From Escherichia phage vB_vPM_PD114, in sequence record MH675927.1: DNA of 64,000 nucleotides. One strand, given 5' to 3'. A program made the position numbers and the translations under genes. The notes below the pieces were generated by a model. That model was not told the DNA's origin. It was given only the letters and a program-made list of their open reading frames with translations, and searched no databases. Positions 9,677-58,517 of the stretch are shown here, piece after piece (the first letter of the stretch is position 1; the number at the start of each line of letters is the position of its first letter).

Positions 9677-9856
9677 TTATTTAAAATATTGTTCTAACAA
9701 AACACTAATGCGAACTACCGATTCGCCCATATACGCCCCAGCACAGAGGAAAACAACAAATCTACAAAAATTGCAGTACCATTTGTTCACTGGAAACGAG
9801 GCTAACATTATAATTGCAATAGCAATTAACATCATAAGAACTGTTACTAATACCAT
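9677..9856 (-). CDS. small hydrophobic membrane protein (59 aa), not in ORF track
   Basis: Own translation MVLVTVLMMLIAIAIIMLASFPVNKWYCNFCRFVVFLCAGAYMGESVVRISVLLEQYFK; RBS AGAGG upstream; stop overlaps RBS of next gene. Confidence 0.35.
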   Translation of the reverse strand: MVLVTVLMMLIAIAIIMLASFPVNKWYCNFCRFVVFLCAGAYMGESVVRISVLLEQYFK

Positions 9857-14666: not shown

Positions 14667-14944
14667 TACTTATTCCTTTTGTTGTTGATCACATCTAAAG
14701 CTGTGTAAGGTTTGTTTGTACCGCTGTATTCAAGAATAATTGGTACATATTCATAGACCAACTCAAAAGTACCATACATAGAATCTGCAACTGAAATAAG
14801 CATTTCAGTGCCTTTGTCGTTCTTAATTAATGAAAATCTTGCCCCTGGTTTATTGAGCACTTCATATTTCTTACCTGCTGTCAGCAAACCTGAATACCAT
14901 TCATTTTGCACAACAGACAAACACTTCAGATAAGTTTTTCTCAT
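14666..14944 (-). CDS. hypothetical protein (92 aa)
   Basis: ORF track. Confidence 0.3.
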   Translation of the reverse strand: MRKTYLKCLSVVQNEWYSGLLTAGKKYEVLNKPGARFSLIKNDKGTEMLISVADSMYGTFELVYEYVPIILEYSGTNKPYTALDVINNKRNK

Positions 14945-15282
14945 TTCTTTTTGCTCCTTCTTTTAGGTTTCTCGTATAAACCTAACACAGCCGATTCTTT
15001 TGCGCAAATAGGAACTGACTTCATTCCTCGTTTTTTAGCTTCTGGTAGATTCAAAACCCACCAGCCAAACCAGTACAATTCATCTTCTGTGAAAGGATCT
15101 GCCATAGGATCTGCATCACGTTCCTCAAATTTAGCAAGAGCTTCTTCTATCTTTTCTATTGGAGTATCAAAGACAAAAGCCTCTGTGTCAAATTTTTGTT
15201 TCTTAGGAGCGGCTTTTGCCGCCCCATCTTTAGATGCGCGCTTTGTTACGGATCGCTTCTTCGGTGTTTTCGCCATCAACAA
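14941..15282 (-). CDS. hypothetical lysine-rich protein (113 aa)
   Basis: ORF track; basic N- and C-termini (KKRSVTKRASK..., KPKRRSKKK). Confidence 0.35.
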   Translation of the reverse strand: MLMAKTPKKRSVTKRASKDGAAKAAPKKQKFDTEAFVFDTPIEKIEEALAKFEERDADPMADPFTEDELYWFGWWVLNLPEAKKRGMKSVPICAKESAVLGLYEKPKRRSKKK

Positions 15283-19952: not shown

Positions 19953-20028
19953 GGTTCCATAGCTCACTGACGAGAGCGCACACCTCATAAGTGTCGAGGG
20001 CAGGGATTGTAACCCTGGGGAACCACCA
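19953..20028 (+). tRNA. tRNA-Met(CAT)-like, atypical T-loop
   Basis: Acceptor GGTTCC/GGAACC (position 7 mismatched), D-stem GCTC/GAGC, anticodon loop CTCATAA, T-arm CAGGG-ATTGTAA-CCCTG, encoded CCA. Hand-folded. Confidence 0.4.
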
Positions 20029-20059
20029 TTTAAAAGGAGATGCTATGCATCTCCTATAT

Positions 20060-20145
20060 GCAAGTGTGGTGGAATTGGTGATACACATTGTGCTTAAAAC
20101 GCAACGCTTAAATGATTGAGGGTTCGAATCCCTCCACTTGCACCA
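20060..20145 (+). tRNA. tRNA-Leu(TAA), class II
   Basis: Acceptor GCAAGTG/CACTTGC, anticodon loop CTTAAAA, long variable arm, T-arm GAGGG-TTCGAAT-CCCTC, discriminator A, CCA encoded. Confidence 0.6.
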
Positions 20146-20147
20146 AC

Positions 20148-20253
20148 GCCTAGTAGGGTATTTGGTAATTCCGAGGCCATCAAAGCCTGAAAAATATGTT
20201 AGACCGCTTTGTCTAACTAAATACGAAATATGGTTCGATTCCATAACTAGGCT
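20148..20253 (+). tRNA. tRNA-like element, unusually long (106 nt); possible pseudo-tRNA or tRNA with insertion
   Basis: Perfect acceptor pairing GCCTAGT/ACTAGGC and T-arm TATGG-TTCGATT-CCATA, but 74 nt between them with internal 7-bp hairpin GTTAGAC/GTCTAAC. Confidence 0.25.
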
Positions 20254-20285
20254 TCAATTTAAATAATAATTTTAGTAAAAATATC

Positions 20286-20314
20286 TTGACATTCACTTAG
20301 TTTTTTGTTATAGT
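20286..20314 (+). promoter_or_regulatory. sigma70-like promoter TTGACA-N17-TATAGT
   Basis: Read directly; ~12 nt upstream of next tRNA. Confidence 0.5.
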
Positions 20315-20325
20315 TACTGTGAAAA

Positions 20326-20407
20326 CGGGGTGTATCTCACCTGACTTCTAATCAGGCGTTAACCGAGTAATTGGAGTATGCAGGTTCGAATCCTGTCACC
20401 CCGACCA
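20326..20407 (+). tRNA. tRNA-like with Arg(TCT)-type anticodon arm, atypical D region
   Basis: Acceptor CGGGGTG/CACCCCG, T-arm GCAGG-TTCGAAT-CCTGT, CCA encoded; hairpin CCTGA-CTTCTAA-TCAGG only 7 nt after acceptor, no D-arm found by hand. Confidence 0.4.
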
Positions 20408-20425
20408 AAAAGTTTTAAAAACTAC

Positions 20426-20455
20426 TTGACAAGCAAGATAGTTTTATGTTAGATT
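20426..20455 (+). promoter_or_regulatory. sigma70-like promoter TTGACA-N18-TAGATT
   Basis: Read directly. Confidence 0.4.
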
Positions 20456-20470
20456 TAAAGTATGATAACG

Positions 20471-20560
20471 GGAAGGTAGGGCGCAGCGGTGCGCAACCAG
20501 GTTTGAACCCTGGCCCATTGTAGCGATACGGTGATGGTTCGACTCCATTATCTTCCTCCA
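20471..20560 (+). tRNA. tRNA-Ser(TGA), class II
   Basis: Acceptor GGAAGGT/ATCTTCC (one G-U), anticodon arm CCAGG-TTTGAAC-CCTGG, long variable arm, T-arm GATGG-TTCGACT-CCATT, CCA encoded. Confidence 0.55.
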
Positions 20561-20578
20561 AATTCAACTAGGAGCTTT

Positions 20579-20731
20579 ATGAATTATAAAACTATTGGAC
20601 AGGTTGTTACCGGAGTTAAGATTGTAGATAATAAAGTTGTTTATGAGTATTCTAATCTTCAACAATCTGAAGATGGTAAAAATATTCGTATGGTAAAAGC
20701 AGAACAAAAAGATTCCGGTTGTTTTGAATAA
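20579..20731 (+). CDS. hypothetical small protein (50 aa; track ORF 20531-20731 trimmed to avoid tRNA overlap)
   Basis: TAGGAGC...ATG at 20579 right after tRNA-Ser. Confidence 0.3.
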   Translation: MNYKTIGQVVTGVKIVDNKVVYEYSNLQQSEDGKNIRMVKAEQKDSGCFE

Positions 20732-20739
20732 TTAAGAAC

Positions 20740-20825
20740 GGTAGATTGGTGAAATGGTAGCCACAACAGTTTGCTAAACTGTCGTCGGAAACGGCGTGTA
20801 GGTTCAAGTCCTACATCTACCGCCA
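20740..20825 (+). tRNA. tRNA-Ser(GCT), class II
   Basis: Acceptor GGTAGAT/ATCTACC, anticodon arm ACAGT-TTGCTAA-ACTGT, long variable arm, T-arm GTAGG-TTCAAGT-CCTAC, discriminator G, CCA encoded. Confidence 0.6.
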
Positions 20826-20845
20826 AATTTATGCGAGGAGGATGT

Positions 20846-21226
20846 ATGCCAAGCAATGATTATATGCGGGAATACATGAAAACTCGGTGGCAGAAGCGAA
20901 GAGCTTCCGCAATCCTCCAGCTTGGAGGTAAATGTGTTAATTGTGGGTCTGTAGATGACTTGGAATTTGATCATAAAGATTCAAGCGAGAAGAAGTTTTA
21001 TATTAGTCGAATGAGTTCATGCTCTGAGGCTAAATGGCAGGAAGAACTTGCCAAATGTCAACTTTTGTGCCATGACTGTCACATGAAGAAGACAAGAATA
21101 TCCCAAGACATGGGAAACAGAATTAGAACAACGGTGTGTGTTTGCGGGGCAGTATTTTATAGTACAAAGGCTTATGCTGGACATACACGGTGGTGTAAAG
21201 AGTATGCATCGTTAGCCAAGCGGTAA
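20846..21226 (+). CDS. HNH endonuclease (free-standing, inside tRNA cluster)
   Basis: CVNCGSVDDLEFDHKD...CQLLCHDCHMKK...C-terminal Cys/His cluster; RBS GAGGAGG; last ~7 codons overlap the 5' end of the following tRNA. Confidence 0.55.
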   Translation: MPSNDYMREYMKTRWQKRRASAILQLGGKCVNCGSVDDLEFDHKDSSEKKFYISRMSSCSEAKWQEELAKCQLLCHDCHMKKTRISQDMGNRIRTTVCVCGAVFYSTKAYAGHTRWCKEYASLAKR

Positions 21227-21280
21227 GGCACTTGACTTTTAATCAAGGGAGCGAAGGTTCGAATCCTTCACGATGTACCA
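21206..21280 (+). tRNA. tRNA-Lys(TTT)
   Basis: Acceptor GCATCGT/ACGATGT (G1-U72), D-stem GCC/GGC, anticodon arm CTTGA-CTTTTAA-TCAAG, T-arm GAAGG-TTCGAAT-CCTTC, CCA encoded. Confidence 0.55.
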
Positions 21281-21285
21281 AACAC

Positions 21286-21372
21286 GTAGGTATCGCATAG
21301 CGGCAATTGCTGGAGACTGTAAATCTCCTGCCCTTCGGGGCTTCGTTGGTTCGAGTCCAACTACCTGCACCA
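21286..21372 (+). tRNA. tRNA-Tyr(GTA), class II
   Basis: Acceptor GTAGGTA/TACCTGC, anticodon arm GGAGA-CTGTAAA-TCTCC, long variable arm, T-arm GTTGG-TTCGAGT-CCAAC, discriminator A, CCA. Confidence 0.55.
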
Positions 21373-21379
21373 AATTAAA

Positions 21380-21464
21380 GATGGATTGGCCTAGTGGTTG
21401 GGCGACGGACTGTTAATCCGTGAACGAAAGTTCTAGCAAGGTTCAAATCCTTGATCCATCGCCA
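21380..21464 (+). tRNA. class II (Ser-like architecture) tRNA with GTT anticodon
   Basis: Acceptor GATGGAT/ATCCATC, 3-bp D-stem GCC/GGC, anticodon arm ACGGA-CTGTTAA-TCCGT, 15-nt variable hairpin GAAC-GAAA-GTTC, T-arm CAAGG-TTCAAAT-CCTTG, discriminator G, CCA. Confidence 0.45.
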
Positions 21465-21471
21465 GAATTAT

Positions 21472-21548
21472 GGACTTGTAGAGTTAAGGTAAACCCTCAG
21501 TCGCAAAGAGGCTTCTGGAATTGCAGGTATCGAATCCTGCCGAGTCCA
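21472..21548 (+). tRNA. tRNA, anticodon unresolved
   Basis: Acceptor GGACTTG/CGAGTCC, T-arm GCAGG-(T)ATCGAAT-CCTGC with 8-nt loop; anticodon arm could not be folded unambiguously (possible loop GTCGCAA). Confidence 0.35.
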
Positions 21549-21554
21549 ATTATT

Positions 21555-21629
21555 GCTCCTATCGTATAACGGCTATTACGGTTGCCTTGTAAGCAACTTA
21601 TCAGGGTTCGAGTCCTTGTGGGAGCACCA
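21555..21629 (+). tRNA. tRNA-Thr(TGT)
   Basis: Acceptor GCTCCTA/TGGGAGC, anticodon arm GTTGC-CTTGTAA-GCAAC, T-arm CAGGG-TTCGAGT-CCTTG, CCA encoded. Confidence 0.55.
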
Positions 21630-21652
21630 ATTTTAACTCTAAAGGAGTGTAT

Positions 21653-21976
21653 GTGACAGAAAAAGAGTTAGAGAAATATTTTAATATCAATGTTTTCGAT
21701 GGTTTTGATGATATTGAAGATGTTGAAAGATATTATGAAGTAGAGTTAGATAAGGATAACATTGTAATTCTTTCTGCCACTTATGATTGTGCATATTATG
21801 AAGGTGAATCTCACGTTTATTTTTATGATATGAAAACATCTTTGTTTTATGAAGTACACGCATATCATTGTTCTTGTTATGGTTTAGAAGGTCAGTGGGA
21901 ACCTGAAGAAATAGGTGATTTGAGCTTTACGGTTGCATATCTAAACAGACGTGGTGCATCTACTATTTTAAAATAA
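21653..21976 (+). CDS. hypothetical acidic protein (107 aa) inside tRNA cluster
   Basis: AGGAG then GTG at 21653 (track start 21647 overlaps the RBS); ORF track. Confidence 0.4.
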   Translation: MTEKELEKYFNINVFDGFDDIEDVERYYEVELDKDNIVILSATYDCAYYEGESHVYFYDMKTSLFYEVHAYHCSCYGLEGQWEPEEIGDLSFTVAYLNRRGASTILK

Positions 21977-21990
21977 ATATTAAAAGCCTC

Positions 21991-22020
21991 TTGACAAAGG
22001 GGCTAATAATATGTTAGAGT
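21991..22020 (+). promoter_or_regulatory. sigma70-like promoter TTGACA-N18-TAGAGT
   Basis: Read directly; precedes tRNA-Gly. Confidence 0.45.
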
Positions 22021-22031
22021 AATATTGTTAA

Positions 22032-22106
22032 GCGGGTATAGTGTTAATGGTAGCATATGAGGTTTCCACCCTCCAGGTGCAGGTTCAAGTCCTGTTACTC
22101 GCTCCA
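22032..22106 (+). tRNA. tRNA-Gly(TCC)
   Basis: Acceptor GCGGGTA/TACTCGC, anticodon loop TTTCCAC, T-arm GCAGG-TTCAAGT-CCTGT, CCA encoded. Confidence 0.5.
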
Positions 22107-22537
22107 AGATTATTTAAATGGAATCGCTAGAGAAAATTTCTCTTTTCGCTCATGGTTTTCTCCTTCAAACTCTAGCGGTTCTTTTTAAGTGATTTTTTAG
22201 TTTATTGGAGATTCACTGCCTTAGTGTGAGCTAAAATCGAGGAGCCATCGAACTGTCTGATTAATGATTTGCGAATCATTATAGTTTTAAGACCCCGGCA
22301 GTTTTATGGTGTACCTCTTGAATGTGAATGATGACGGGTTTATGGTTATCCTGGTCGTTAAATATCCAAAAACCTATGTTCCCCTTGAGGGCTTGCGCAG
22401 GCAATGCCAATAAGTCCTGCATTTTCATTTAAAAGAGAATTTATAATGGAAAAAGATGAACTTAAGTATGCTAAGCCTCTGGCTTCTGCTGCACGAAAAG
22501 CAGTTCGTCACTTTGTGGTAACACTGAAGTAATTTAT

Positions 22538-22612
22538 TGGAGATTAGCCTAGTGGGAAGGCAACGGCCTTTGAAGTCGTGATGACTAGGTTCGATTCCTA
22601 GATCTCCAGCCA
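22538..22612 (+). tRNA. tRNA-Gln(TTG)
   Basis: Acceptor TGGAGAT/ATCTCCA, D-stem GCC/GGC, anticodon arm ACGGC-CTTTGAA-GTCGT, T-arm CTAGG-TTCGATT-CCTAG, CCA. Confidence 0.5.
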
Positions 22613-22619
22613 AGATTTA

Positions 22620-22695
22620 CAGTGCGTAGCGCAGTTGGTAGCGTGGGAGCCTTGGACGCTTCAGGTCGCAGGTTCGAGTCCTGCCGCACTGACCA
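22620..22695 (+). tRNA. tRNA-Pro(TGG)
   Basis: Acceptor CAGTGCG/CGCACTG (C1-G72), anticodon arm GGAGC-CTTGGAC-GCTTC, T-arm GCAGG-TTCGAGT-CCTGC, CCA. Confidence 0.55.
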
Positions 22696-22700
22696 AATTT

Positions 22701-22775
22701 GCAGAGATAGCTGAGACGGATTAGTGCTACCCTGAAAAGGTAGAAAGGATGGATCGTTACCATCTCTCTGCACCA
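22701..22775 (+). tRNA. tRNA-Phe(GAA)
   Basis: Acceptor GCAGAGA/TCTCTGC, anticodon arm CTACC-CTGAAAA-GGTAG, T-arm GATGG-ATCGTTA-CCATC (atypical loop), CCA. Confidence 0.5.
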
Positions 22776-22852
22776 AATAACACCATCCAAGGAGTAGACT
22801 TGGTTAACTGTCAATAGCACATTGAGGCTTCTTACAGTGGTGTACTTATTAT

Positions 22853-22937
22853 GGCTAAGTGGTGGAATGGTATACACGATACGCTTAGAACGTATTGCCC
22901 CAAGGGATTGTGAGTTCGAGTCTCACCTTAGCTACCA
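22853..22937 (+). tRNA. tRNA-Leu(TAG), class II
   Basis: Acceptor GGCTAAG/CTTAGCT, anticodon arm ATACG-CTTAGAA-CGTAT, long variable arm, T-arm GTGAG-TTCGAGT-CTCAC, discriminator A, CCA. Confidence 0.55.
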
Positions 22938-22952
22938 AATTATTACAGATTG

Positions 22953-23031
22953 CGCGGGATAGAGGAGTCTGGTCGTCCTCGCCAGTTTCATATGCTGGAG
23001 ATCATCGGTTCAAATCCGATTCCCGCCTCCA
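22953..23031 (+). tRNA. tRNA with CAT anticodon (Met, or Ile2 if lysidine-modified), C1:C72 mismatch
   Basis: Acceptor CGCGGGA/TCCCGCC with unpaired 1:72, D-stem GAGG/CCTC, anticodon arm CCAGT-TTCATAT-GCTGG, T-arm ATCGG-TTCAAAT-CCGAT, CCA. Confidence 0.45.
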
Positions 23032-23089
23032 CTAAATACCTCCCTTCTGGTGTAATGATTAAATTACATTGACACCTCAAGGAACTCAT

Positions 23090-23172
23090 AGCTGGGTAGA
23101 TTTAAAAGAGTATGGTACTCAATATGGCTCCAAACCATAGATCAAGGGGTTCGATTCCTCACCTTGCTGCCA
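23090..23172 (+). tRNA. tRNA-Trp(CCA)-like, boundaries uncertain
   Basis: Anticodon arm TATGG-CTCCAAA-CCATA, T-loop TTCGATT, 3' CCTTGCT-G-CCA; acceptor pairing has a mismatch, D region long. Confidence 0.3.
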
Positions 23173-23177
23173 ATTAT

Positions 23178-23253
23178 TGTGGTATCGTACAGATGGTTAG
23201 TACACTCGACCGATAATCGAGAAACAACGGTTCGACTCCGTTTACCACGACCA
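23178..23253 (+). tRNA. tRNA-Ile(GAT)
   Basis: Acceptor TGTGGTA/TACCACG, D-stem GTAC/GTAC, anticodon arm CTCGA-CCGATAA-TCGAG, T-arm AACGG-TTCGACT-CCGTT, CCA. Confidence 0.45.
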
Positions 23254-23366
23254 AACTCCGTGCCAGCGGTGTCTTCGAAGAACAAGCCTAGTTCCTTCTG
23301 AGATGGAGGGGTGCGACTCCTTAACGCACAATTCTAATAAAGCATTTCAACTTAACAGTATTTATT

Positions 23367-23391
23367 AGCCTCCTTATTGGAGGCTTTTTGC
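23367..23391 (+). terminator. rho-independent terminator AGCCTCC-TTATT-GGAGGCT + TTTTTG at end of tRNA array
   Basis: Perfect 7-bp stem followed by T-run. Confidence 0.6.
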
Positions 23392-23457
23392 TATTTATTG
23401 AATAAAACTTGACTTATTATTTTTTATATGTTATCCTTAAGTAAGGAGGTGCATATT

Positions 23458-23748
23458 ATGCCTAAATTGAAAAGAGGTCGAGGTAGACCTACAGCCGAAA
23501 TGCAACAGATTTATGCTATGGATGCTGCACAGGCGCAAGTAAAAGAAATTTTTGCTGGTCGTTATTTAGATGCTATGCGTTACATTGCAGATCTTGTTGT
23601 AGATGAAAAGGCTTCTGCTAATATTAAGTTGACTGCTTCTAAGATCATCAAAGAACAAGTAGAAGAATGGCTGGAAGAACATTATGAATCTATGGAAGAA
23701 GAAGATATTCTTCCAGAAAATTCTCCCCCTCAAAAAATCGTTATCTAA
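23458..23748 (+). CDS. hypothetical DNA-binding protein with AT-hook-like KRGRGRP (possible small terminase; speculative)
   Basis: AAGGAGG-N8-ATG at 23458 (track ORF starts at 23428); basic N-terminus, acidic C-terminus. Confidence 0.35.
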   Translation: MPKLKRGRGRPTAEMQQIYAMDAAQAQVKEIFAGRYLDAMRYIADLVVDEKASANIKLTASKIIKEQVEEWLEEHYESMEEEDILPENSPPQKIVI

Positions 23749-23886
23749 TTCTCCTCTCTTGGGAACTTTGTTCCCCCCTCTCCTTGTTAATTAACACCCC
23801 TTTCCGAAAGGTTAGGGGGTTTTTTATTTATACCTATTGCTTTTATATATGTTTTTATGATATGATTAATACAGGAGGACTATAAA

Positions 23887-24060
23887 ATGAGAAACTATGT
23901 AGCTAAACACGATTTCAATAGGGCTTCTTATCACAGAGATAAGAAGAACAGTTATTCGCGTAAATGGGATCTGGAGGAAGAATTAGATTATGATTACAGA
24001 AGAACAATGGAAGGAGATTTTGGAGAATGCACAACCGATGGTAGTGAAGAAGATAGTTAA
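23887..24060 (+). CDS. small acidic protein (57 aa), not in ORF track
   Basis: AGGAGG-N8-ATG; MRNYVAKHDFNRASYHRDKKNSYSRKWDLEEELDYDYRRTMEGDFGECTTDGSEEDS. Confidence 0.3.
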   Translation: MRNYVAKHDFNRASYHRDKKNSYSRKWDLEEELDYDYRRTMEGDFGECTTDGSEEDS

Positions 24061-24095
24061 TAATTCACCAAGTCTCCCTAAAGTAAAATTTAAAG

Positions 24096-24527
24096 ATGAT
24101 GATACTGATTATGTTAATAAACCTACTGAAGAATAAATGGGTTAGGTATTTTGTTCTTATTATAGCATTGTTTGGTGGTTTGTATATTGGTTTAAACAAA
24201 TTACACGATGATGTGTATGCACAAGGCTACAACGCAGGTGTTGCTAAACAAGAACAAATATTACAACAAAACCAAATTAAAGCAAAACAGCAATTCGATA
24301 TTTTACAAGCAAAAGCAGATTCAGAAAGATCTAAATTGAATGAAAAAATTCATTCATTAACGAAAGAAAAAAATGATCTTCTTATACAATTGGATAAGAA
24401 GAGTAATAACATAACACAAGAGAGAATAGATTATGCGAAAACATCTTCTGGCGCTATGTCTTGTTTTAGCCCTAATGATGACGGGTTGCGCATCATCAAC
24501 AACAGCTTCCCAGCCTCTACTGATTGA
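24096..24527 (+). CDS. i-spanin-like protein (N-terminal TM helix + coiled coil)
   Basis: TM segment VRYFVLIIALFGGLYIGL followed by Q/K-rich coiled coil; 3' end overlapped by a lipoprotein ORF in another frame. Confidence 0.4.
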   Translation: MMILIMLINLLKNKWVRYFVLIIALFGGLYIGLNKLHDDVYAQGYNAGVAKQEQILQQNQIKAKQQFDILQAKADSERSKLNEKIHSLTKEKNDLLIQLDKKSNNITQERIDYAKTSSGAMSCFSPNDDGLRIINNSFPASTD

Positions 24528-24762
24528 GCAGTGTAAAGCTGTAGCAACACAACAAATAAAAGCCCCTGATTCTGTTAGTATGGAGAAACCATCTACCCCT
24601 GTTTTATATACTCCTAATCAAATAAAGAAAGGAGTTACAAGATCAGAGGTAGTTGATAATCAAACTTTAAACAACGCTTTGTGGGAAAAAGATAGGATAA
24701 AACTTATCAGTTTGCAAAACTATATTAAAACATTACAAAGCGAAGGAATAATTTCTAATTAG
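24433..24762 (+). CDS. o-spanin-like outer-membrane lipoprotein, overlapping the i-spanin-like gene
   Basis: MRKHLLALCLVLALMMTGC lipoprotein signal/lipobox-like; starts within the 3' part of the previous ORF in a different frame. Confidence 0.4.
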   Translation: MRKHLLALCLVLALMMTGCASSTTASQPLLIEQCKAVATQQIKAPDSVSMEKPSTPVLYTPNQIKKGVTRSEVVDNQTLNNALWEKDRIKLISLQNYIKTLQSEGIISN

Positions 24763-24770
24763 GAGGAGAT

Positions 24771-26009
24771 GTGGCAAGGAAACCTGTCAAACAATCTTTT
24801 GAAAATGTAGATATTGAAGTTAAAGCCCAACCTGGCAAACAAACACTAGCTATGGATCTTATGCCTGAAGTAATGATTTATGGTGGTGCGGCAGGTTGTG
24901 TTTCAGCAGAAACAGAATACTTAACAAGAGACGGTTGGAAACAAATAAGTGAATATGATGGTGAGGATATTTATCAATACAATCCAAGAAACAAACGTCT
25001 TGAATTAGTTACACCATCTTTTGTAGAATATGATGCTAAAGATAATCTGTATTGTATTACAAACGGAGTAGGTGTCTTCCAAGAATTAAGTATGGAACAT
25101 CGCTTTGTTTTCTACAAGAAGAAAAAATCCAAAAAACATTTTGAAATTCTTGTTGGGGATCTTATTGCACTACAGCAAGCAGGACACCCATTACGAGGAT
25201 ATATTGAAAATCCTTTTGGTAAACGTGTTCCGTTTAACATTCAAGGTAAACCTAGCACATATCTAAAAATTCATGAGGTAATGACAAGTGATGATAAGAA
25301 ATATTGCTTTGAAACTCCAAGCAGTTATGTCGTGTTTAGACGTGGCGATCACATCTTCGTTACTGGGAATAGCGGCAAAAGCCGTCTGCTACTTCTAAAA
25401 GCACTTAAATACGCATATAAAGATCCACTGTTTGGTGGTATTCTTTTCCGTAAAAATACAACAGCTTTACGTAAATCTGGTGGTTTGTTTACTGAAGCTA
25501 AAAAACTTTATCTACCATTAAAGCCTCACGTAAGAGAACAGGCTATGGAGATGGAGTTCAGAGCCACAAAAGGTGGCACACTTAAATTTGACCATCTTGA
25601 AAATGATAACGTAACTGCTGAAACTAACCATCAAGGTACACAGTATTCGATGGTAGGGTTTGACGAACTTACACATTTTACACAATATGAAATGCTGTAT
25701 CTGTTAGGGCGTATGCGTTCTGAATCAGAAACATCTTTTATGCTGTGTACTTGTAACCCTGATGCTGACAGTTGGGTGTTGAAATGGGTACTTCCTTATT
25801 TGGATGAAGCTGGTTATCCACGGGAAGATATGTGTGGCAAACAGCTATACTTTCTTATTGTGCAAGATGAACCAGTATTTGCTGAAACAGCAGAAGAGTT
25901 GAAAGAAAAGTATCCTGAAAACTGTTTTATGCAAAACCCAAACACAGGTGAAACAGTGGTTATTGAACCACAAACATTTGTGTTCATTGGTGGAACCATT
26001 AATCAATAG
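24771..26009 (+). CDS. terminase large subunit, ATPase domain (contains mini-intein in Walker A)
   Basis: GTG start after AGGAGG; YGGAAG|C...intein...N|SGKS reconstitutes P-loop GGAAGSGKS; Walker B SMVGFDELTHF; followed by portal gene downstream. Confidence 0.7.
   Translation: MARKPVKQSFENVDIEVKAQPGKQTLAMDLMPEVMIYGGAAGCVSAETEYLTRDGWKQISEYDGEDIYQYNPRNKRLELVTPSFVEYDAKDNLYCITNGVGVFQELSMEHRFVFYKKKKSKKHFEILVGDLIALQQAGHPLRGYIENPFGKRVPFNIQGKPSTYLKIHEVMTSDDKKYCFETPSSYVVFRRGDHIFVTGNSGKSRLLLLKALKYAYKDPLFGGILFRKNTTALRKSGGLFTEAKKLYLPLKPHVREQAMEMEFRATKGGTLKFDHLENDNVTAETNHQGTQYSMVGFDELTHFTQYEMLYLLGRMRSESETSFMLCTCNPDADSWVLKWVLPYLDEAGYPREDMCGKQLYFLIVQDEPVFAETAEELKEKYPENCFMQNPNTGETVVIEPQTFVFIGGTINQ
24897..25370 (+). 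mobile_element. mini-intein (158 aa) inserted in the terminase Walker A motif
   Basis: Starts CVSAETEYLTRDGW (block A-like, Cys1), ends ...DHIFVTGN followed by Ser (+1); flanking extein residues join to a canonical P-loop. Confidence 0.6.
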
Positions 26010-26063
26010 TGGCTTTGTGCAGCGATGCACATCGAATAACTTTGTTAATTGCTGGGAAGTCTA

Positions 26064-26092
26064 TTGACAAATAGATAATCAGCAGCTATAAT
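26064..26092 (+). promoter_or_regulatory. consensus sigma70 promoter TTGACA-N17-TATAAT driving the HNH endonuclease gene
   Basis: Exact -35 and -10 consensus hexamers, 17-nt spacer. Confidence 0.55.
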
Positions 26093-26124
26093 CACTTCTC
26101 CAAAAATATTAGTAGGAGAGTAAA

Positions 26125-26805
26125 ATGAAAAACTTAGATTTCATCGGATACCCGCATTATTGCGCCACATACGATGGTCGTATTTTTAGTTTATACACCC
26201 AAAAATTCCTAAGCGAAAATAAGATGCTTGGAGATTACAAGGGAGTAACCATTTGTGAAAATGGTAACAGGATAGAAGAATTACAGCACAGGTTGATAGC
26301 AAAAGCATTTGTGCCTAACCCTGAAAATAAGCCTTTTGTTAATCACAAAGATGGCAACAAACTTAATAATTGTGCAGACAATCTTGAGTGGACAACAGAA
26401 CAAGAGAATACTCTTCACGCTATGTCCACAGGGTTAAGACGAACAGAAGTCATAAATGACTACAGACCTATTCCAGACACTGTTGCTGTGGAAATTTGCA
26501 AACTGTTAGAGCAAGGATCACGTAACAAAGATATCTGTCAGATGTATAATGTGGCACAATCTGTTGTTAGTGATATAAAAGCTGGCAGAACATATAAAGA
26601 CATTTCACAAGACTTTAACTTTAGAAAAATACCCTCTTCCAACAGAATAAGTGAAGATAAAGTCTTAGGGATTTGTGAAAAGCTGCAAGAAAATATTCTA
26701 TCAATAAATAAAATAGCTAAAAAATACGGCGTAAGTTTTAATGTAGTTAAGAGTATTAAAGATAGGAAAACCTATACGTACTTATCTAATAACTACAATT
26801 GGTGA
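26125..26805 (+). CDS. HNH homing endonuclease (HNH_3-type with C-terminal DNA-binding region) inserted within the terminase gene
   Basis: VNHKDGNKLNNCADNLEWTTEQEN core motif; RBS GGAGAG; located between the two terminase reading frames. Confidence 0.65.
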   Translation: MKNLDFIGYPHYCATYDGRIFSLYTQKFLSENKMLGDYKGVTICENGNRIEELQHRLIAKAFVPNPENKPFVNHKDGNKLNNCADNLEWTTEQENTLHAMSTGLRRTEVINDYRPIPDTVAVEICKLLEQGSRNKDICQMYNVAQSVVSDIKAGRTYKDISQDFNFRKIPSSNRISEDKVLGICEKLQENILSINKIAKKYGVSFNVVKSIKDRKTYTYLSNNYNW

Positions 26806-27017
26806 TGTAGTTCAACGACTATCCCGAAAGGGAGTAGGGCAGAAGCAAATGCTGCTCGAAAAGCAAAGCATCTCTTAGGAGATGATGATATAGTCTATTC
26901 TGCACAGTGATGTGCAGCAGTTCATAAGAGAACGTGGAGTAGAGTTGCGACTACTCCAGAATAAAAAGATTTGATAACCCTGAACTAATAAGACTTAACC
27001 CTAAATACTTAGCTTCT

Positions 27018-27824
27018 TTGAAGGCTCAAACCGCCGTTAAGAGAGCACAGCTTTTAGATGGTTGTTGGTTTGCTCGTGCGCAAGAAGAGAGTTTCTTTAA
27101 CAGAGAATGGTTACACGTTATCAAGTTTAAAGATTTACCAAACAATCTTAAATATATGCGAGCGTGGGATAAAGCAGTATCTGTTCCAACAGAATCTTAT
27201 CGTTATCCTGACTACACAACATCTGTTAAAATGGCTAAAGACTCTGATGGAAATTATTACATTTTTGGTGATTATGATTATGATGCTCACGATGAAGGTA
27301 GTAAAATTTTTGGTAGATTCAGAAGACTACCAGGTGATCGAGATAATTTAATTCTAAACCAATGTAAGATTGATGGAGATGAAGTTACAGTTGTATTGCC
27401 AAAAGATCCTTCTGGTGCTGGTTTGATTGAATATACAGAATCAGCTAAAAAACTAATTGCTGAAGGGTTTGTTGTTAAACCAGACGCTATGCCTGGTAAC
27501 AAGAAAAAGTTACAACGCTTTATGCCATTTAGTAGTGCTTGTCAAAATGGTTTTGTTTATATTGTAGAAGAATCTTTCCCTAATAAAGAAACTCTTGATC
27601 ATTTCTATAAAGAGATGGAGTCGTTTAATGGAGAAAGATCTACAGCAACATTAAAAGATGATATTCCAGATGCTGCTGCATCTTGCTTTAATACTTTGTC
27701 AAAAGAACAGATGTTTAAAGCAGTAGCAATACCTTCTGCAACAAATGCATTAACAGGGTATGGTAAGATGGGTGGAAGATCAAGAAACTCTTTATCTTCT
27801 CCATATAGTATCAGAGGAAGATAA
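27018..27824 (+). CDS. terminase large subunit, C-terminal (nuclease-domain) part; true 5' end uncertain
   Basis: In the same frame as the N-terminal terminase ORF; frame open from 26943; track start is TTG; position between ATPase part and portal. Confidence 0.45.
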   Translation: MKAQTAVKRAQLLDGCWFARAQEESFFNREWLHVIKFKDLPNNLKYMRAWDKAVSVPTESYRYPDYTTSVKMAKDSDGNYYIFGDYDYDAHDEGSKIFGRFRRLPGDRDNLILNQCKIDGDEVTVVLPKDPSGAGLIEYTESAKKLIAEGFVVKPDAMPGNKKKLQRFMPFSSACQNGFVYIVEESFPNKETLDHFYKEMESFNGERSTATLKDDIPDAAASCFNTLSKEQMFKAVAIPSATNALTGYGKMGGRSRNSLSSPYSIRGR

Positions 27825-51524: not shown

Positions 51525-51833
51525 ATGAACGAAATGTTCTCCCAAGGTGGTAAAGGTTCAACCGGAATCTTAACCAATAAACAAGCAGTAGCCCGTCACT
51601 TTGGAGTTAAACAATCTGAGGTTGTTTACTTCTCAGTTGGTGTGGATTTGGGTGGGTATAAGGTTATCTATGATAAGGAGACGCAAAGGGCGTATTCCCT
51701 ACCTGCTGATATTGCCCCAGGTACTACTGCCATTAGTCTTAGTGCTGCTGTACTTGTGCATTCAGCGGGTTCTGTAGACCTTGGGGAATTAGCTGTATAT
51801 CGTGATTTAAAAAGTAATGAGAACGCACCATGA
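51525..51833 (+). CDS. hypothetical protein (102 aa)
   Basis: ORF track. Confidence 0.35.
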   Translation: MNEMFSQGGKGSTGILTNKQAVARHFGVKQSEVVYFSVGVDLGGYKVIYDKETQRAYSLPADIAPGTTAISLSAAVLVHSAGSVDLGELAVYRDLKSNENAP

Positions 51834-52075
51834 GAAAATTTTTAATAGGTATGTTTTGTACATATCCTGATAATAAAGTCAGTTCTACTAAAGTTTGGAA
51901 TGCTATTGGTATGATTGTTATGTCCAGTATGTTTATTTATTTGGGAATTGATAAAGAAATTCCTGAATGGATGGGCTGGGCTTTTGTTTTTATGATCACA
52001 CCATCCAGACTAATGAAGAATTTAATAGATTTACGTTGGGGCAGATCACCTGCCCCTGATAAGGAGGATAATTAA
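51830..52075 (+). CDS. small two-TM membrane protein (holin-like topology; function unproven)
   Basis: Hydrophobic segments VWNAIGMIVMSSMFIYLGI and WMGWAFVFMITP; ATGA overlap with upstream ORF. Confidence 0.3.
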   Translation: MRKFLIGMFCTYPDNKVSSTKVWNAIGMIVMSSMFIYLGIDKEIPEWMGWAFVFMITPSRLMKNLIDLRWGRSPAPDKEDN

Positions 52076-55200: not shown

Positions 55201-55752
55201 ATGAAAAAAGATGTTATTTTTACAGGTTTTGAATTGTACGAACCGGAATTAACAGAGGAGAACATTCTTTATCTTTCTGTTGGCGGTGGTTTTTTGCAAG
55301 ACAAGGATGGTAATGATTGGTATCAACTTCAAAAAACTTTGATGGCTGAATATCCCGACGCTTATTTCATTACCTTAGATGATAATAATATTGTACGTGG
55401 TGCTACTAAAGATGTTACTACCTATTTCCCTGCCGGACAATCTATTTTAGTTACATATAATGCACCAGATAAAATAGAAGATGAAAGTAATATTGGCTCT
55501 TGGCAATATGTTGAAGGTAAATTTGTTCCTCACAATAGTCTTGCTATTGAAGATGCTACTCTTAAGTTAGAAAAGGAGTTAACTTGGGCTACGAATCAAG
55601 TGTCTGCGATTCAAGATTTAGAGGAATTACAAGGTTTATCTCAAGAACAAAAAGATTGGTTAGGAAAAGTTAAACTATATCGTGCAACACTGATTCAAAT
55701 TAACGTTGAAGATGCACCTAATATAACTTGGCCTACAAGACCTAAGAAATAG
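55201..55752 (+). CDS. tail fibre assembly/chaperone-like protein (putative)
   Basis: 183 aa ORF immediately after a fibre-like gene. Confidence 0.3.
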   Translation: MKKDVIFTGFELYEPELTEENILYLSVGGGFLQDKDGNDWYQLQKTLMAEYPDAYFITLDDNNIVRGATKDVTTYFPAGQSILVTYNAPDKIEDESNIGSWQYVEGKFVPHNSLAIEDATLKLEKELTWATNQVSAIQDLEELQGLSQEQKDWLGKVKLYRATLIQINVEDAPNITWPTRPKK

Positions 55753-55761
55753 GGGTAATGT

Positions 55762-56103
55762 ATGGAGCTAACAGAAGTATGGGATATCGCTAAAGAGGCG
55801 ATTATCCCTCTTATTGGTGTAATCTGGGTGGTCTTCAAACAGAAGATAGATGATATGGCAAGTGATTTGGACAAAATGGAAGAGAAATACCGTGAACTAG
55901 AAAAGAAGTTGGTGTTTGTTGAATCCACTTATGCTACCAAAGCAGAACTTGCTCAAATGCTTAACCAGATCAACTCTACATTAATGGCAAATAATACTGC
56001 CTTAGAACAGAAGATTGAAAAAATAATGGATTTAAAAAATGCTCCTGTTCAATTAATGCTAGAGGAGATTACGAAGCGCACACAAAGTAAGGACAAAAAT
56101 TAA
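55762..56103 (+). CDS. hypothetical coiled-coil protein (113 aa)
   Basis: ORF track. Confidence 0.3.
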   Translation: MELTEVWDIAKEAIIPLIGVIWVVFKQKIDDMASDLDKMEEKYRELEKKLVFVESTYATKAELAQMLNQINSTLMANNTALEQKIEKIMDLKNAPVQLMLEEITKRTQSKDKN

Positions 56104-58517
56104 TGGCGAATTTTCCAACATATCCTGCTACGACACTAGAACAAGGTGTTGATCTGGTTATATTCTCGTCTAACCAGATGCATGATGTTATTAACGGGGA
56201 TGCTACAGCAACTGTAGAAACCGAAACAGGTTTAATACCTACACTGCGTAAAGCACTTGTTGATAACTTCTTCTTTAAGAGTCCTGTTGCTTGGTCAGCA
56301 GGATCAACTGAAACTGTATTTAACCAGTTACGTTATTTTGAAAACGGCATCTTGAGTGGGTACTACTATGCCCCATCTGCCACTACTGCGAACCCTGTAC
56401 CTATGCAGGGTACACCTGTAGGAGACAGTAACTGGACTCTGTACGCTCTTAAAACTGAACAGTTAGCTTCAGATGTGTATCCTTGGTATTTTAAAGGTGC
56501 TACAGGATATGAAACAGAAATCAGTCCTCCTTATATCTTTGATAATGCTATTGTCACCATTAACGGTGTAATTCAGATTCAAGGTGAAGCATTTACTATC
56601 AAAGATAGTAAAATTATTCTGGCAGAACCATTAGGTTTAGATCCGTCTACTGGTCTACCTAACAAATTGTTTGCTTTTATTGGTAAAACAACAGCCTCTA
56701 CTTCTTATGTAGAGAAAAACCTTTTGTCATCTACCACTGGTGCAGCAATGGTTGGTCTTCCATCTGGAGGCAACCTGTTACAAGCTCAATACTTTGTAAC
56801 GCCTGAACAGTTTGGTGCAATTGGTGATGGAGTTACCGATGATACTCAAGCAATTCTAAAAACCATTACTTTCGCTAACACGAATAACATTCAAGTACGT
56901 GCAGATAAGAATTATAGATTCACAAGCTCAATTGCTATGTCTGGTATTCGTTGGTATGGTGGTACATTCACTGGTAACGGTGGAACAATGATTTCTACTG
57001 TGTCCTGTTGGATTGAAAACGTTCGCTTTGAAAAATGTTATGTTAAGATGTTAGGTGGTGATTGTCGATTCTATCGTAATATCTTCTCCAACGCAACATC
57101 TACAGCAGCATTTTTAATGCAAGCAATGACAAGTGAAGGTACGTTGGACTTCAGTTACAACGAAATGTATGGTTGTAAATATGCGATCCTGCAACAAGGT
57201 ACTGGAGAAGTAATGACCTATGGGCGTTACTCTAACAACTACATTCACGATATCAAAGGTGATGCTATTGAACTTAACGTAGTTCAAAGACACTACACTG
57301 AAGGTTTGATCATCGAGAATAACCACATTGCTAACGTAGATGCTTCTGGACAAGGTGCAAACTGGGGTATTGGTATTGGTGTAGCAGGTAGTGGCCCATA
57401 TGGTGTTGATGCTCCTGATTCACAATATGTACGTAACTTCAGTATCGTTGGAAATAGGGTTTACAATTGCCGTCAATGTCTACACGTTGAAATGGGTAAA
57501 AACTTCACAATACGTGATAACGAAGTTTATCCTAACACAGCAGTTTCAACAGGTACAGGTTTAACTACTTGTGGTGTTGCATTATACGGATGCCAAGACT
57601 TTGAAGTTGATGGTTTAACTGGTTATCTGCTTAATGATCCGTCTGTTTCAACACGCATGGTCTTTATTGACTGGGGTGTTAACGGTGGAAGATATGCGGG
57701 GCCACCAATTAACTTTACAATTAAGAATTTGGATATTCCAGAATCTTCGATTGAGATTGCAACTGCTGGATCAGACGACTGGGAAAACTCTACAATTGTT
57801 AGTAACATCAATTGTAATGATTTTAAATGGCGTGGGCTACCATCTAGCTCTACTTTTAATAATATTCGTTGCCGTAGTATTGACTTTATTGGTCAACACG
57901 GAAGCGGAGAAGGAAGTGGTGGCGGTTTCTATGCTCGCAGCCAATTCACGTATATGAAGTGGGTAGGATGTACAGCACTTAGCGGAGATGAAACAACAGT
58001 TTCTTTTGCTAAAATCTACACGGATCGTTGCGATCAGGTTGGAAATAACTTTGGTGTTCCAACTGCTGTTGATGGTACAGGTCATCGTGGGCCAGTCTTA
58101 ACCACTATTTCTGAACAATATTTTACAGATTATGATGAATTCCCAGGTGGGCGTGACTTCCCTACTGGAACAGTTATTCATTGTGCAAGCGGTAAAAAAC
58201 ACGTTGTTACAGCAGGTGGTGCTTTCTTTAGTGATAATGAGAAAATAAAAGCAACTGTTACAGGTCAAACCTATCTACAGTCTAATGCTTTAAACTGGGC
58301 TAGTAATGGCTACGCTAAAGCAGCAGGTACTAAGATTGTTATTCCAGGTGCAGGAGCAAATGGTGGCGATCTTGTGACAACTATAGCACGTGCTACATAT
58401 GTGACAAATAGTTTGTACACAATAGATATTGCAGATCCAATTGTAACACCTACAGCAGAGAATACACAAATTAAAGCTCTGAACCCTGTTACTTTTGTTA
58501 CTGTCAATAATGCTTAA
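56103..58517 (+). CDS. tail spike protein (804 aa; beta-helix/pectate-lyase-like fold suspected)
   Basis: Large ORF with repetitive G/N/T-rich segments typical of beta-helix tailspikes; terminator follows. Fold not verified. Confidence 0.4.
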   Translation: MANFPTYPATTLEQGVDLVIFSSNQMHDVINGDATATVETETGLIPTLRKALVDNFFFKSPVAWSAGSTETVFNQLRYFENGILSGYYYAPSATTANPVPMQGTPVGDSNWTLYALKTEQLASDVYPWYFKGATGYETEISPPYIFDNAIVTINGVIQIQGEAFTIKDSKIILAEPLGLDPSTGLPNKLFAFIGKTTASTSYVEKNLLSSTTGAAMVGLPSGGNLLQAQYFVTPEQFGAIGDGVTDDTQAILKTITFANTNNIQVRADKNYRFTSSIAMSGIRWYGGTFTGNGGTMISTVSCWIENVRFEKCYVKMLGGDCRFYRNIFSNATSTAAFLMQAMTSEGTLDFSYNEMYGCKYAILQQGTGEVMTYGRYSNNYIHDIKGDAIELNVVQRHYTEGLIIENNHIANVDASGQGANWGIGIGVAGSGPYGVDAPDSQYVRNFSIVGNRVYNCRQCLHVEMGKNFTIRDNEVYPNTAVSTGTGLTTCGVALYGCQDFEVDGLTGYLLNDPSVSTRMVFIDWGVNGGRYAGPPINFTIKNLDIPESSIEIATAGSDDWENSTIVSNINCNDFKWRGLPSSSTFNNIRCRSIDFIGQHGSGEGSGGGFYARSQFTYMKWVGCTALSGDETTVSFAKIYTDRCDQVGNNFGVPTAVDGTGHRGPVLTTISEQYFTDYDEFPGGRDFPTGTVIHCASGKKHVVTAGGAFFSDNEKIKATVTGQTYLQSNALNWASNGYAKAAGTKIVIPGAGANGGDLVTTIARATYVTNSLYTIDIADPIVTPTAENTQIKALNPVTFVTVNNA

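Follow-up and report, generated by a model that had tools for sequence, protein, structure and literature searches.

Two overlapping open reading frames (ORFs) lie at 24096..24762 in the 64,000-nucleotide stretch of Escherichia phage vB_vPM_PD114 analysed here (record MH675927.1; hereafter the window), directly before the terminase gene (TerL) and with no endolysin or holin gene beside them. This raises the question of whether such a pair encodes a spanin, and whether its genes are new. Our results make it very probable that the pair codes for a two-component spanin, belonging to a phi92-like (Justusliebigvirus) myophage. Three lines of evidence favor this reading: the predicted anatomy of the two proteins, their matches to PHROG profiles, and their identity with a pair catalogued in phi92. 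Judged by these sequence matches, the gene pair is already known as the catalogued overlapped spanin of phi92, and what we describe is therefore a rediscovery of known spanin genes.

On the evidence of nucleotide similarity, the window belongs to a phi92-like myophage of the genus Justusliebigvirus, subfamily Stephanstirmvirinae. The region 23400..26900 matched Escherichia phage cardinal over its full length at 99.1% identity and Salmonella phage UAB_1 at 99.0%, and many Justusliebigvirus genomes were ~99% identical to it over the shared part. Genomes of phi92-like Justusliebigvirus phages are ~146–150 kb in size. Gene order in the window runs from nucleotide-metabolism genes on the minus strand, through a block of 15 tRNA genes (19953..23253), to the packaging, head, tail and tail-fibre late genes on the plus strand. 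Examination of 23200..24900 revealed a terminator-like hairpin at 23367..23385, 3' of the tRNA block, and a promoter scan of the same interval returned five promoter-like sites, compared to 5.8 expected by chance. Upstream of the first gene of the pair are three small ORFs, all of them conserved, of the gp115-like (23428..23748), gp116-like (23887..24060) and gp117-like (23990..24136) types, the last of which overlaps the start of the i-spanin gene. At the other end, 8 nt separate the stop codon of the o-spanin gene (24760..24762) from the start of TerL (GTG, 24771), confirming the placement upstream of the terminase proposed in the first-pass annotation, and a Shine-Dalgarno sequence, AGGAGGAG, extends across that stop codon. 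The order tRNA block, gp115, gp116, gp117, i-spanin, o-spanin, TerL is kept in phages Tr1, KP13-26, phAPEC8, nepoznato and PsgM04F. The exception is FBKp34, in which ~2.2 kb of tRNA genes and small ORFs separate the spanin pair from TerL, demonstrating that adjacency of the two is not obligatory.

The first gene of the pair (24096..24527, plus strand) encodes 143 amino acids when read from the first of three candidate ATG starts (24096, 24099 and 24111), and matched phrog_4297 and gp118 of phi92. We found no convincing Shine-Dalgarno sequence upstream of the start, and the phi92 record likewise states 'No RBS identified'. The protein has a single hydrophobic segment at residues 15–33 (24138..24194; Kyte-Doolittle 19-residue mean 1.86), with K12, K14 and R17 as positive residues for its N-terminal side, an arrangement that suggests one N-terminal transmembrane (TM) segment with the N-terminus in the cytoplasm. 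In a single-sequence AlphaFold2 (AF2) model, one unbroken helix extends over residues 14–119, with pLDDT values above 90 at roughly residues 20–110, and the TM segment falls within it. The part of this helix that follows the TM segment, residues ~34–119 (24195..24452; block pLDDT 89–98 for residues 31–110), is predicted to be a periplasmic helical region of the coiled-coil type. A published census of spanins assigned one coiled coil, at residues 54–115, to the 143-residue i-spanin of phi92 (Kongari et al. 2018, supplement file 4; PMC6139136), and together the AF2 model and the coiled coil of this orthologue point to a periplasmic domain that is largely alpha-helical. The tail of the protein (residues 120–143) was modelled at low confidence (pLDDT ~50). 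Alignment of six homologues delimited a conserved C-terminal segment, YAKT..G.MSCF.PNDDGL.IINKSFP (24432..24524), which was modelled as non-helical, and in which the codon of the invariant Cys123 occupies 24462..24464.

The second gene (24433..24762, plus strand) matched phrog_1267 and the o-spanin of phi92, and encodes a 109-residue precursor of a predicted mature lipoprotein of 91 residues, five of them prolines. Its N-terminus, MRKHLLALCLVLALMMTG/CAS, where the slash marks the predicted processing site, has a positive n-region, a hydrophobic core, and the lipobox M-T-G-C with Cys19. The lipoprotein signal peptide occupies 24433..24489, with the codon of Cys19, the predicted site of lipid modification, at 24487..24489. 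The lipobox on which the first-pass reading depended (L-M-M-T-G/C) is valid by a PROSITE-style rule for signal peptidase II signals, and both G18 and C19 are invariant in the six homologues. An Asp at position +2 is the inner-membrane retention signal of lipoproteins. The +2 residue is Ala in the window and Ser, Thr or Asn in relatives, and the window protein is thus without an Asp-type retention signal. When the PROSITE-style rule was applied at every start codon on both strands of the whole 64-kb window, there were five matches, among which the 109-residue ORF was the only free-standing ATG ORF. The other four were ORFs of 43–99 residues, each lying beneath a larger ORF; the one at 18057 runs antisense to the NAMPT-like ORF and the one at 25814 antisense to that of TerL. 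In the AF2 model of the o-spanin, the signal peptide forms a helix, a linker modelled at low confidence follows, and residues 70–103 (24640..24741; block pLDDT 89–95 for residues 81–109) form a confidently predicted C-terminal helix that holds the conserved motif NNALW..DR...LQ.Y. The invariant Cys34 (24532..24534) is the only free Cys of the mature protein, and is predicted to be periplasmic. Taken together, the TM segment at residues 15–33, the long helix and the lipobox agree with the Rz/Rz1 spanin architecture that the first-pass annotation had recognized in a TM plus coiled-coil protein and a lipoprotein. We also considered a unimolecular spanin of the T1 gp11 type, and rejected it, as the only hydrophobic segment of the 109-residue protein is its signal peptide and its C-terminus is an amphipathic helix.

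Comparisons with protein families and with phi92 point in the same direction as this anatomy. The i-spanin matched phrog_4297 (E = 8e-40) and the o-spanin matched phrog_1267 (E = 2e-20), both of which are labelled 'Rz-like spanin'. Of the 143 i-spanin residues, 136 (95%) are identical to those of phi92 gp118, a protein named 'Rz-like spanin' in RefSeq, leaving seven substitutions, and the o-spanin is identical to that of phi92 (56007..56336) at 109 of 109 positions. Kongari et al. (2018; BMC Bioinformatics 19:326, PMC6139136) list the phi92 pair as 'ovl', with the i-spanin at 55669-56101, the o-spanin at 56006-56336, and an overlap of 95. The same census gives proteins of 143 and 109 residues with a mature o-spanin of 91 residues, and places phi92 and phAPEC8 in i-spanin and o-spanin families of their own (PMC6139136). 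The genes are annotated as i-spanin and o-spanin in the BASEL phage PaulScherrer, with use of the Kongari et al. spanin database, and RefSeq records carry the label 'Rz-like spanin' for them. Because these PHROG and GenBank labels are themselves predictions, they do not constitute independent evidence. Scans of both proteins against Pfam and NCBIfam gave nothing significant: Pfam matches at E <= 0.1 reached only 12–14.5 bits, below cut-off and to unrelated families, and the sole NCBIfam match, to TraV, was below threshold. Membership in the sequence family of lambda Rz/Rz1 was rejected on this result, and homology to lambda-type Rz/Rz1 accordingly cannot be claimed; as with most spanin families, assignment to the spanin class rests on architecture.

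The two genes are locked together by a dual-coding overlap of 95 nt (24433..24527, plus strand), in which the C-terminus of the i-spanin is read in frame 0 and the signal peptide of the o-spanin in frame +1. This gives exact coordinates to the overlapping, differently framed pair that the first-pass annotation had placed at 24096-24762. Searches by tblastn recovered 135 phage records for each of the two proteins, essentially all of them Stephanstirmvirinae-type genomes. We compared the window with a set of six homologues, from Citrobacter phage Tr1, Klebsiella phages KP13-26 and FBKp34, the Pseudomonas-labelled phage PsgM04F, phAPEC8 and nepoznato, whose identities to the window proteins ranged from 31 to 66%, the lowest i-spanin value being 31% and the lowest o-spanin value 37%. 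In all six, both ORFs were open, and the o-spanin start was always in the +1 frame, with overlaps of 95–110 nt. Invariant residues of the i-spanin in this set include K12, K14, Y113, K115, G119, C123, S137 and P139, and those of the o-spanin are G18, C19, C34, N80, N81, L83, W84, D87, R88, L94, Q95 and Y97. The equal record counts, the conserved +1 overlap and the invariant Cys residues indicate that this pairing of ORFs is more than chance. Since C123 of the i-spanin and C34 of the o-spanin are both invariant, exactly one free, putatively periplasmic Cys has been kept in each partner, where it would be available for intermolecular disulfides. According to the spanin census, two-component spanins carry periplasmic cysteines, which are used for homotypic disulfides (PMC6139136), and one conserved periplasmic Cys per partner, as predicted here, fits this rule.

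The same conservation bears on whether both ORFs are genuine genes. Gene calling in AT-rich DNA can leave non-coding artefacts, and it might be suspected that one of the two is such a product, given that gp118 carries the flag 'Bad Prodigal statistics' in the phi92 record, which leaves the o-spanin unannotated, and that shortened gene calls of 60 or 95 residues occur in other records. Against this, both frames are open, both proteins match family profiles built from many phages, and functional residues remain invariant where identity has fallen to 31–37%. We consider an artefact extremely unlikely, and the conservation of both frames at the protein level in effect excludes it. A second explanation accepts the genes and assigns them another function, in which the lipoprotein, with or without its membrane partner, would exclude superinfection or mask a receptor in the manner of Cor or T5 Llp. 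Phage outer-membrane lipoproteins of ~60–100 residues can act in exclusion, the pair is not beside a lysin, and the FBKp34 homologue has a weak match to phrog_1119, 'Cor superinfection exclusion protein' (E = 1.3e-4). That match, however, is confined to residues 8–41, which are signal peptide only, so that no Cor- or Llp-type profile match extended beyond the signal peptide; the window o-spanin itself has no Cor match, and its best PHROG is the spanin family at 2e-20. Strict +1-overlap pairing with a protein that has a TM segment and a long helix, and a conserved Cys in each partner, are a spanin signature and not a feature of Cor or Llp, and exclusion, as an early function, would not be expected of a pair that heads the late packaging operon. 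An exclusion role thus appears very improbable.

The location of the pair could be read in yet another way. In Stephanstirmvirinae the pair keeps its site directly before TerL, and the spanin genes of the rV5-like phage LL12 also adjoin TerL, and it is conceivable that the pair forms an envelope-spanning complex with a different late role, linked to packaging by its TerL adjacency, for instance as a membrane tether for assembly or packaging, or as a modulator of the envelope. We know of no packaging system that uses a periplasmic lipoprotein, and the separation of ~2.2 kb in FBKp34 speaks against a link of this kind. In addition, a spanin is a general requirement of phages with Gram-negative hosts, and the lipobox scan found no other candidate pair in the window. 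We regard a packaging-related function as highly unlikely, to about the same degree as exclusion, and retain the two-component spanin as the preferred reading. Weighing against the spanin reading are the lack of detectable similarity in sequence to tested spanins, the location outside a lysis cassette with no recognizable holin nearby, the want of an obvious ribosome-binding site at the i-spanin start, and a mature o-spanin that is longer and less rich in proline than lambda Rz1.

For the spanin pair, a mechanism can be postulated by analogy with lambda Rz/Rz1 and T4, from which we infer membrane topology, complex formation, disulfides, expression timing and a role in lysis. The 143-residue i-spanin would be anchored N-in in the inner membrane, with a helical rod of ~85 residues extending into the periplasm. 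The 109-residue precursor would be lipidated at Cys19, lose its signal peptide, and be sorted to the outer membrane, where it would sit in the inner leaflet. The two proteins would then bind each other across the periplasm by their C-terminal parts, and candidates for the contact are the conserved i-spanin tail (residues 113–143) and the conserved C-terminal helix of the o-spanin; homotypic disulfides would probably form via Cys123 in the former protein and Cys34 in the latter. Once the endolysin, a soluble T4-lysozyme-like enzyme that would be encoded ~30 kb away on the other strand, had removed the peptidoglycan mesh, the spanin complexes may fuse or disrupt the outer membrane as the last step of lysis. 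Because the spanin genes are the last two before TerL, ending 8 nt upstream of it, they are probably expressed along with the late packaging and structural genes.

Spanin genes are typically, but not obligatorily, found in a lysis cassette next to holin and endolysin genes, and such a cassette is absent from this locus. No endolysin was found in the window by tblastn with the 166-residue T4 E-like enzyme of the family. In phi92, a distance of 31.6 kb separates the endolysin gene gp061 (23603..24100, minus strand) from the spanin genes (55670..56336). The endolysin gene of PaulScherrer (118281..118781, minus strand) would lie ~7 kb past the left edge of the window, at a distance from the spanins similar to that in phi92, and in cardinal the distance is ~29 kb. 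Across the relatives, the T4-lysozyme-like endolysin is encoded 29–32 kb from the spanins on the opposite strand. Its neighbors are a PhoH-like ATPase, a hydrophilic ORF of 47 residues and glutaredoxin, and hence that site offers no holin; the 47-residue product beside the endolysin (bas60_0208) was rejected as a holin for its hydrophilicity. On the spanin side, the gp115-, gp116- and gp117-like ORFs were likewise rejected as holins, as none of them contains a hydrophobic segment. There was thus no recognizable holin near either the spanin pair or the endolysin, and none is annotated in the curated PaulScherrer genome. These results agree with the first-pass annotation that neither endolysin nor holin is adjacent to the pair and that the lysis genes are dispersed. 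Dispersal of this kind has already been described in T4 and in LL12, and the arrangement is not unusual; nor, in view of these two phages, is location in a lysis cassette a defining property of spanins.

The first-pass annotation went on to name an ORF at 51830 in the tail cluster as a protein with two TM segments and the only holin-like ORF of the window, and on both counts our results differ. Simple hydropathy of this 81-residue product (51830..52075; phrog_1322, 'membrane protein', with no Pfam or NCBIfam match) shows one clear TM segment at about residues 22–40 and a weak second stretch, and there are two further small membrane ORFs. One, at 9677..9856 on the minus strand, encodes 59 residues with two hydrophobic segments and matched phrog_19851, a family of unknown function; the other, at 55762..56103, encodes 113 residues with an N-terminal TM helix and a coiled coil. 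None of the three had a holin-family match. The 113-residue ORF was also considered as a second i-spanin and rejected, its match to phrog_739 'Rz-like spanin' being weak (2.5e-4) and no lipobox ORF being embedded in or adjacent to it. For BME3, a relative, it is likewise reported that no holin comes before the endolysin, with two small proteins, of 61 and 81 residues, put forward as candidates (PMC12210895). We tentatively suggest, as a possibility that is more doubtful than probable, that the holin of these phages belongs to an undescribed family and is encoded by a scattered small membrane ORF, for which 51830..52075 and 9677..9856 (minus strand) are candidates. If this is true, the three steps of lysis would be wired into three separate transcription units. 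A holin lacking a recognizable gene in the phi92-like group would be relevant to the engineering of these broad-host-range phages for therapy.

The TerL gene that follows the spanin pair has two insertions of its own. An insert of 158 residues (24897..25370) splits the Walker A motif as GGAAG/C...TGN/SGKS, where slashes mark the junctions, and TerL of FBKp34 has the uninterrupted GGAAGSGKS. The first residue of the insert is Cys and its last is Asn, followed by Ser, and an S-x-x-H motif is present. At both ends it is similar to the intein annotated in the DNA polymerase of PaulScherrer, whose last residues are likewise ...ITITGN/C. Sequence searches of Pfam and PDB gave no intein match for the insert, and it carries no intein annotation in the curated PaulScherrer genome. 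On its junction motifs only, this P-loop insert may be described as intein-like. Farther downstream, TerL is interrupted by a 969-nt insertion (26001..26969), a group I intron that is absent from PaulScherrer and most other relatives; its match to Rfam Intron_gpI (45.8 bits, E = 4e-10) is just below the gathering score, and an HNH gene (26125..26805) lies within it.

Public records of the phi92-type spanin genes are inconsistent. The o-spanin is absent from the RefSeq record of phi92, is cut to 60 residues in SD2, and is annotated at 95 residues in PaulScherrer, where most of the signal peptide is missing, while many genomes label both spanin genes 'hypothetical'. The practical value of our results lies in cleaning up these records; otherwise they matter little beyond correct annotation.

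Comparison with well-studied spanins places the window pair in a familiar architectural setting. Like P2 LysB/LysC, the prototype of the overlapped arrangement, and lambda Rz/Rz1, in which the second gene is embedded in the first, the pair would combine a type II inner-membrane protein that has a helical periplasmic domain with an outer-membrane lipoprotein whose coding sequence, in the +1 frame, overlies the 3' part of the first gene. Periplasmic cysteines, and a presumed role in disruption of the outer membrane, are likewise common to these systems. The window pair differs from them in having no detectable sequence similarity, with no significant Pfam or NCBIfam family, and in its location outside a holin-endolysin-spanin cassette. 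Lambda Rz has two helical domains with a hinge, whereas the model of the window i-spanin is a single uninterrupted helix. Lambda Rz1 is shorter and more proline-rich than the mature o-spanin of the window, which has 91 residues with five prolines and a C-terminal helix.

Among large virulent myophages, T4 offers a parallel in gene placement. Its spanin genes pseT.3 and pseT.2 are far from the genes for endolysin (e) and holin (t) (PMC6139136, Fig. 8 legend), its o-spanin is rather large and is predicted to have a helix at the C-terminus (PMC6139136), and an endolysin of the T4 E-like type is common to T4 and the phage family of the window. In contrast to the overlapping genes of the window, those for T4 PseT.3/PseT.2 are of the 'separated' class, one of the embedded, overlapped and separated architectures described in PMC6139136, and they belong to another sequence family. 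T4 also needs two disulfide linkages (PMC6139136), compared to one free, predicted periplasmic Cys in each of the window partners. The rV5-like phage LL12 is closer in layout, with TerL as gp64, the o-spanin as gp65, the i-spanin as gp66, and the endolysin elsewhere as gp90 (PMC6658697). It shares with the phage of the window spanin genes that adjoin TerL, an endolysin at a distance, a holin that is not identifiable, and a TerL gene interrupted by an intron (PMC6658697). Its spanins, however, belong to other PHROG and sequence families than those of the phi92 type, consistent with the census, in which the rV5-type spanins fall into families separate from phi92, alongside the T4- and KP27-type spanins of separated architecture (PMC6139136). 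The closest counterpart by far is the phi92/phAPEC8 family, which has the same pair: proteins of 143 and 109 residues, a 95-nt overlap in the +1 frame, and a location directly upstream of TerL. Compared to phi92 itself, the window is distinguished by the seven substitutions in the i-spanin and, in addition, by the HNH-containing group I intron in its TerL gene.

The cluster that ends in the large terminase gene (TerL) lies directly downstream of a block of 15 tRNA genes (19953-23253, plus strand), among them two genes each for tRNA-Met(CAT), tRNA-Leu and tRNA-Ser. Past the end of this block, at 23367-23385, there is a terminator-like hairpin. At the head of the cluster, in a conserved position, is a gene resembling gp115 of phi92 (23428-23748, plus strand), whose 106-aa product matches phrog_3330, a function-unknown family, and is basic at the N-terminus (KLKRGRGRPT) but acidic and helical towards the C-terminus. 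Because the stretches of relatives' records that we examined carry no annotated small terminase subunit, we can speculate that the gp115-like protein is a candidate for this role. Beginning upstream of the spanin pair, a 48-aa gp117-like ORF (23990-24136, plus strand) shares 71 nt with the end of the gp116-like ORF and 41 nt with the start of the i-spanin ORF. Its counterpart in the phi92 record carries the flag "weak Prodigal statistics". Conservation of its core, W.EIL..AQPM.VKKIVNN.PSLPK.KF, in phAPEC8, nepoznato and Tr1 suggests that it is probably a real gene.

Public records of related phages handle the o-spanin inconsistently. It has no annotation whatsoever in the phi92 RefSeq entry NC_023693 (1208-1537 of the stretch examined), whereas SD2 lists a 60-aa fragment of it (14851-15033 of its stretch) and PaulScherrer a 95-aa version that starts at MMTGC and lacks the signal peptide (380-667 of its stretch). 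The endolysin is often wrongly labelled "baseplate hub subunit and tail lysozyme". A nucleotide search returned four unannotated records with 98.9% identity over 3.5 kb to the phi92-like E. coli phage studied here (MG065639, MG065645, MG065656 and MG065689), all titled "Campylobacter phage" with C. jejuni as host, which may reflect host mislabelling or contamination of the records.

Elsewhere in the window, a 113-aa protein encoded between the tail-fibre chaperone and lateral tail-fibre genes (55762-56103, plus strand) has an N-terminal transmembrane segment (about residues 11-27) and a coiled coil, and gives a weak match to phrog_739, "Rz-like spanin" (2.5e-4). Despite a further match to phrog_15210, "lipoprotein", its N-terminus has no cysteine and hence no lipobox. 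We rejected this locus as a second spanin pair, since no lipoprotein ORF is embedded in or adjoins it. The only obvious holin candidates within the window are two small membrane ORFs, one of 59 aa with two hydrophobic segments (9677-9856, minus strand) and one of 81 aa with one clear and one weak hydrophobic segment (51830-52075, plus strand); neither gave a holin-family match, and it appears that no holin has been identified in the curated genomes of phi92-like phages.

Examination of TerL itself revealed two insertions. Relative to PaulScherrer and most relatives, the gene is interrupted by 969 nt (26001-26969, plus strand) that contain an HNH homing-endonuclease ORF (26125-26805, plus strand) and a match to the Rfam group I intron model RF00028 at 26729-26917 (E = 4e-10), with a score of 45.8 bits that falls slightly under the gathering score of 50. 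A T at 26000 is the last base of the upstream exon, and the TerL coding sequence restarts at 26970 and ends at 27824.

The other insertion (24897-25370, plus strand) adds 158 aa in frame and interrupts the Walker A motif, which reads IYGGAAG/CVSAETEYLTRDGW...HIFVTGN/SGKSRLLLL, with slashes marking the insert boundaries, whereas TerL of Klebsiella phage FBKp34 has an uninterrupted GGAAGSGKS. The insert had no match in Pfam or in a PDB sequence search, and the curated BASEL genome annotation does not label it as an intein. Judged from its sequence, it nevertheless looks like a mini-intein: its first residue is Cys, its last residue is Asn, followed by Ser, and at both ends it resembles the annotated DNA-polymerase intein of PaulScherrer (...ITITGN/C).
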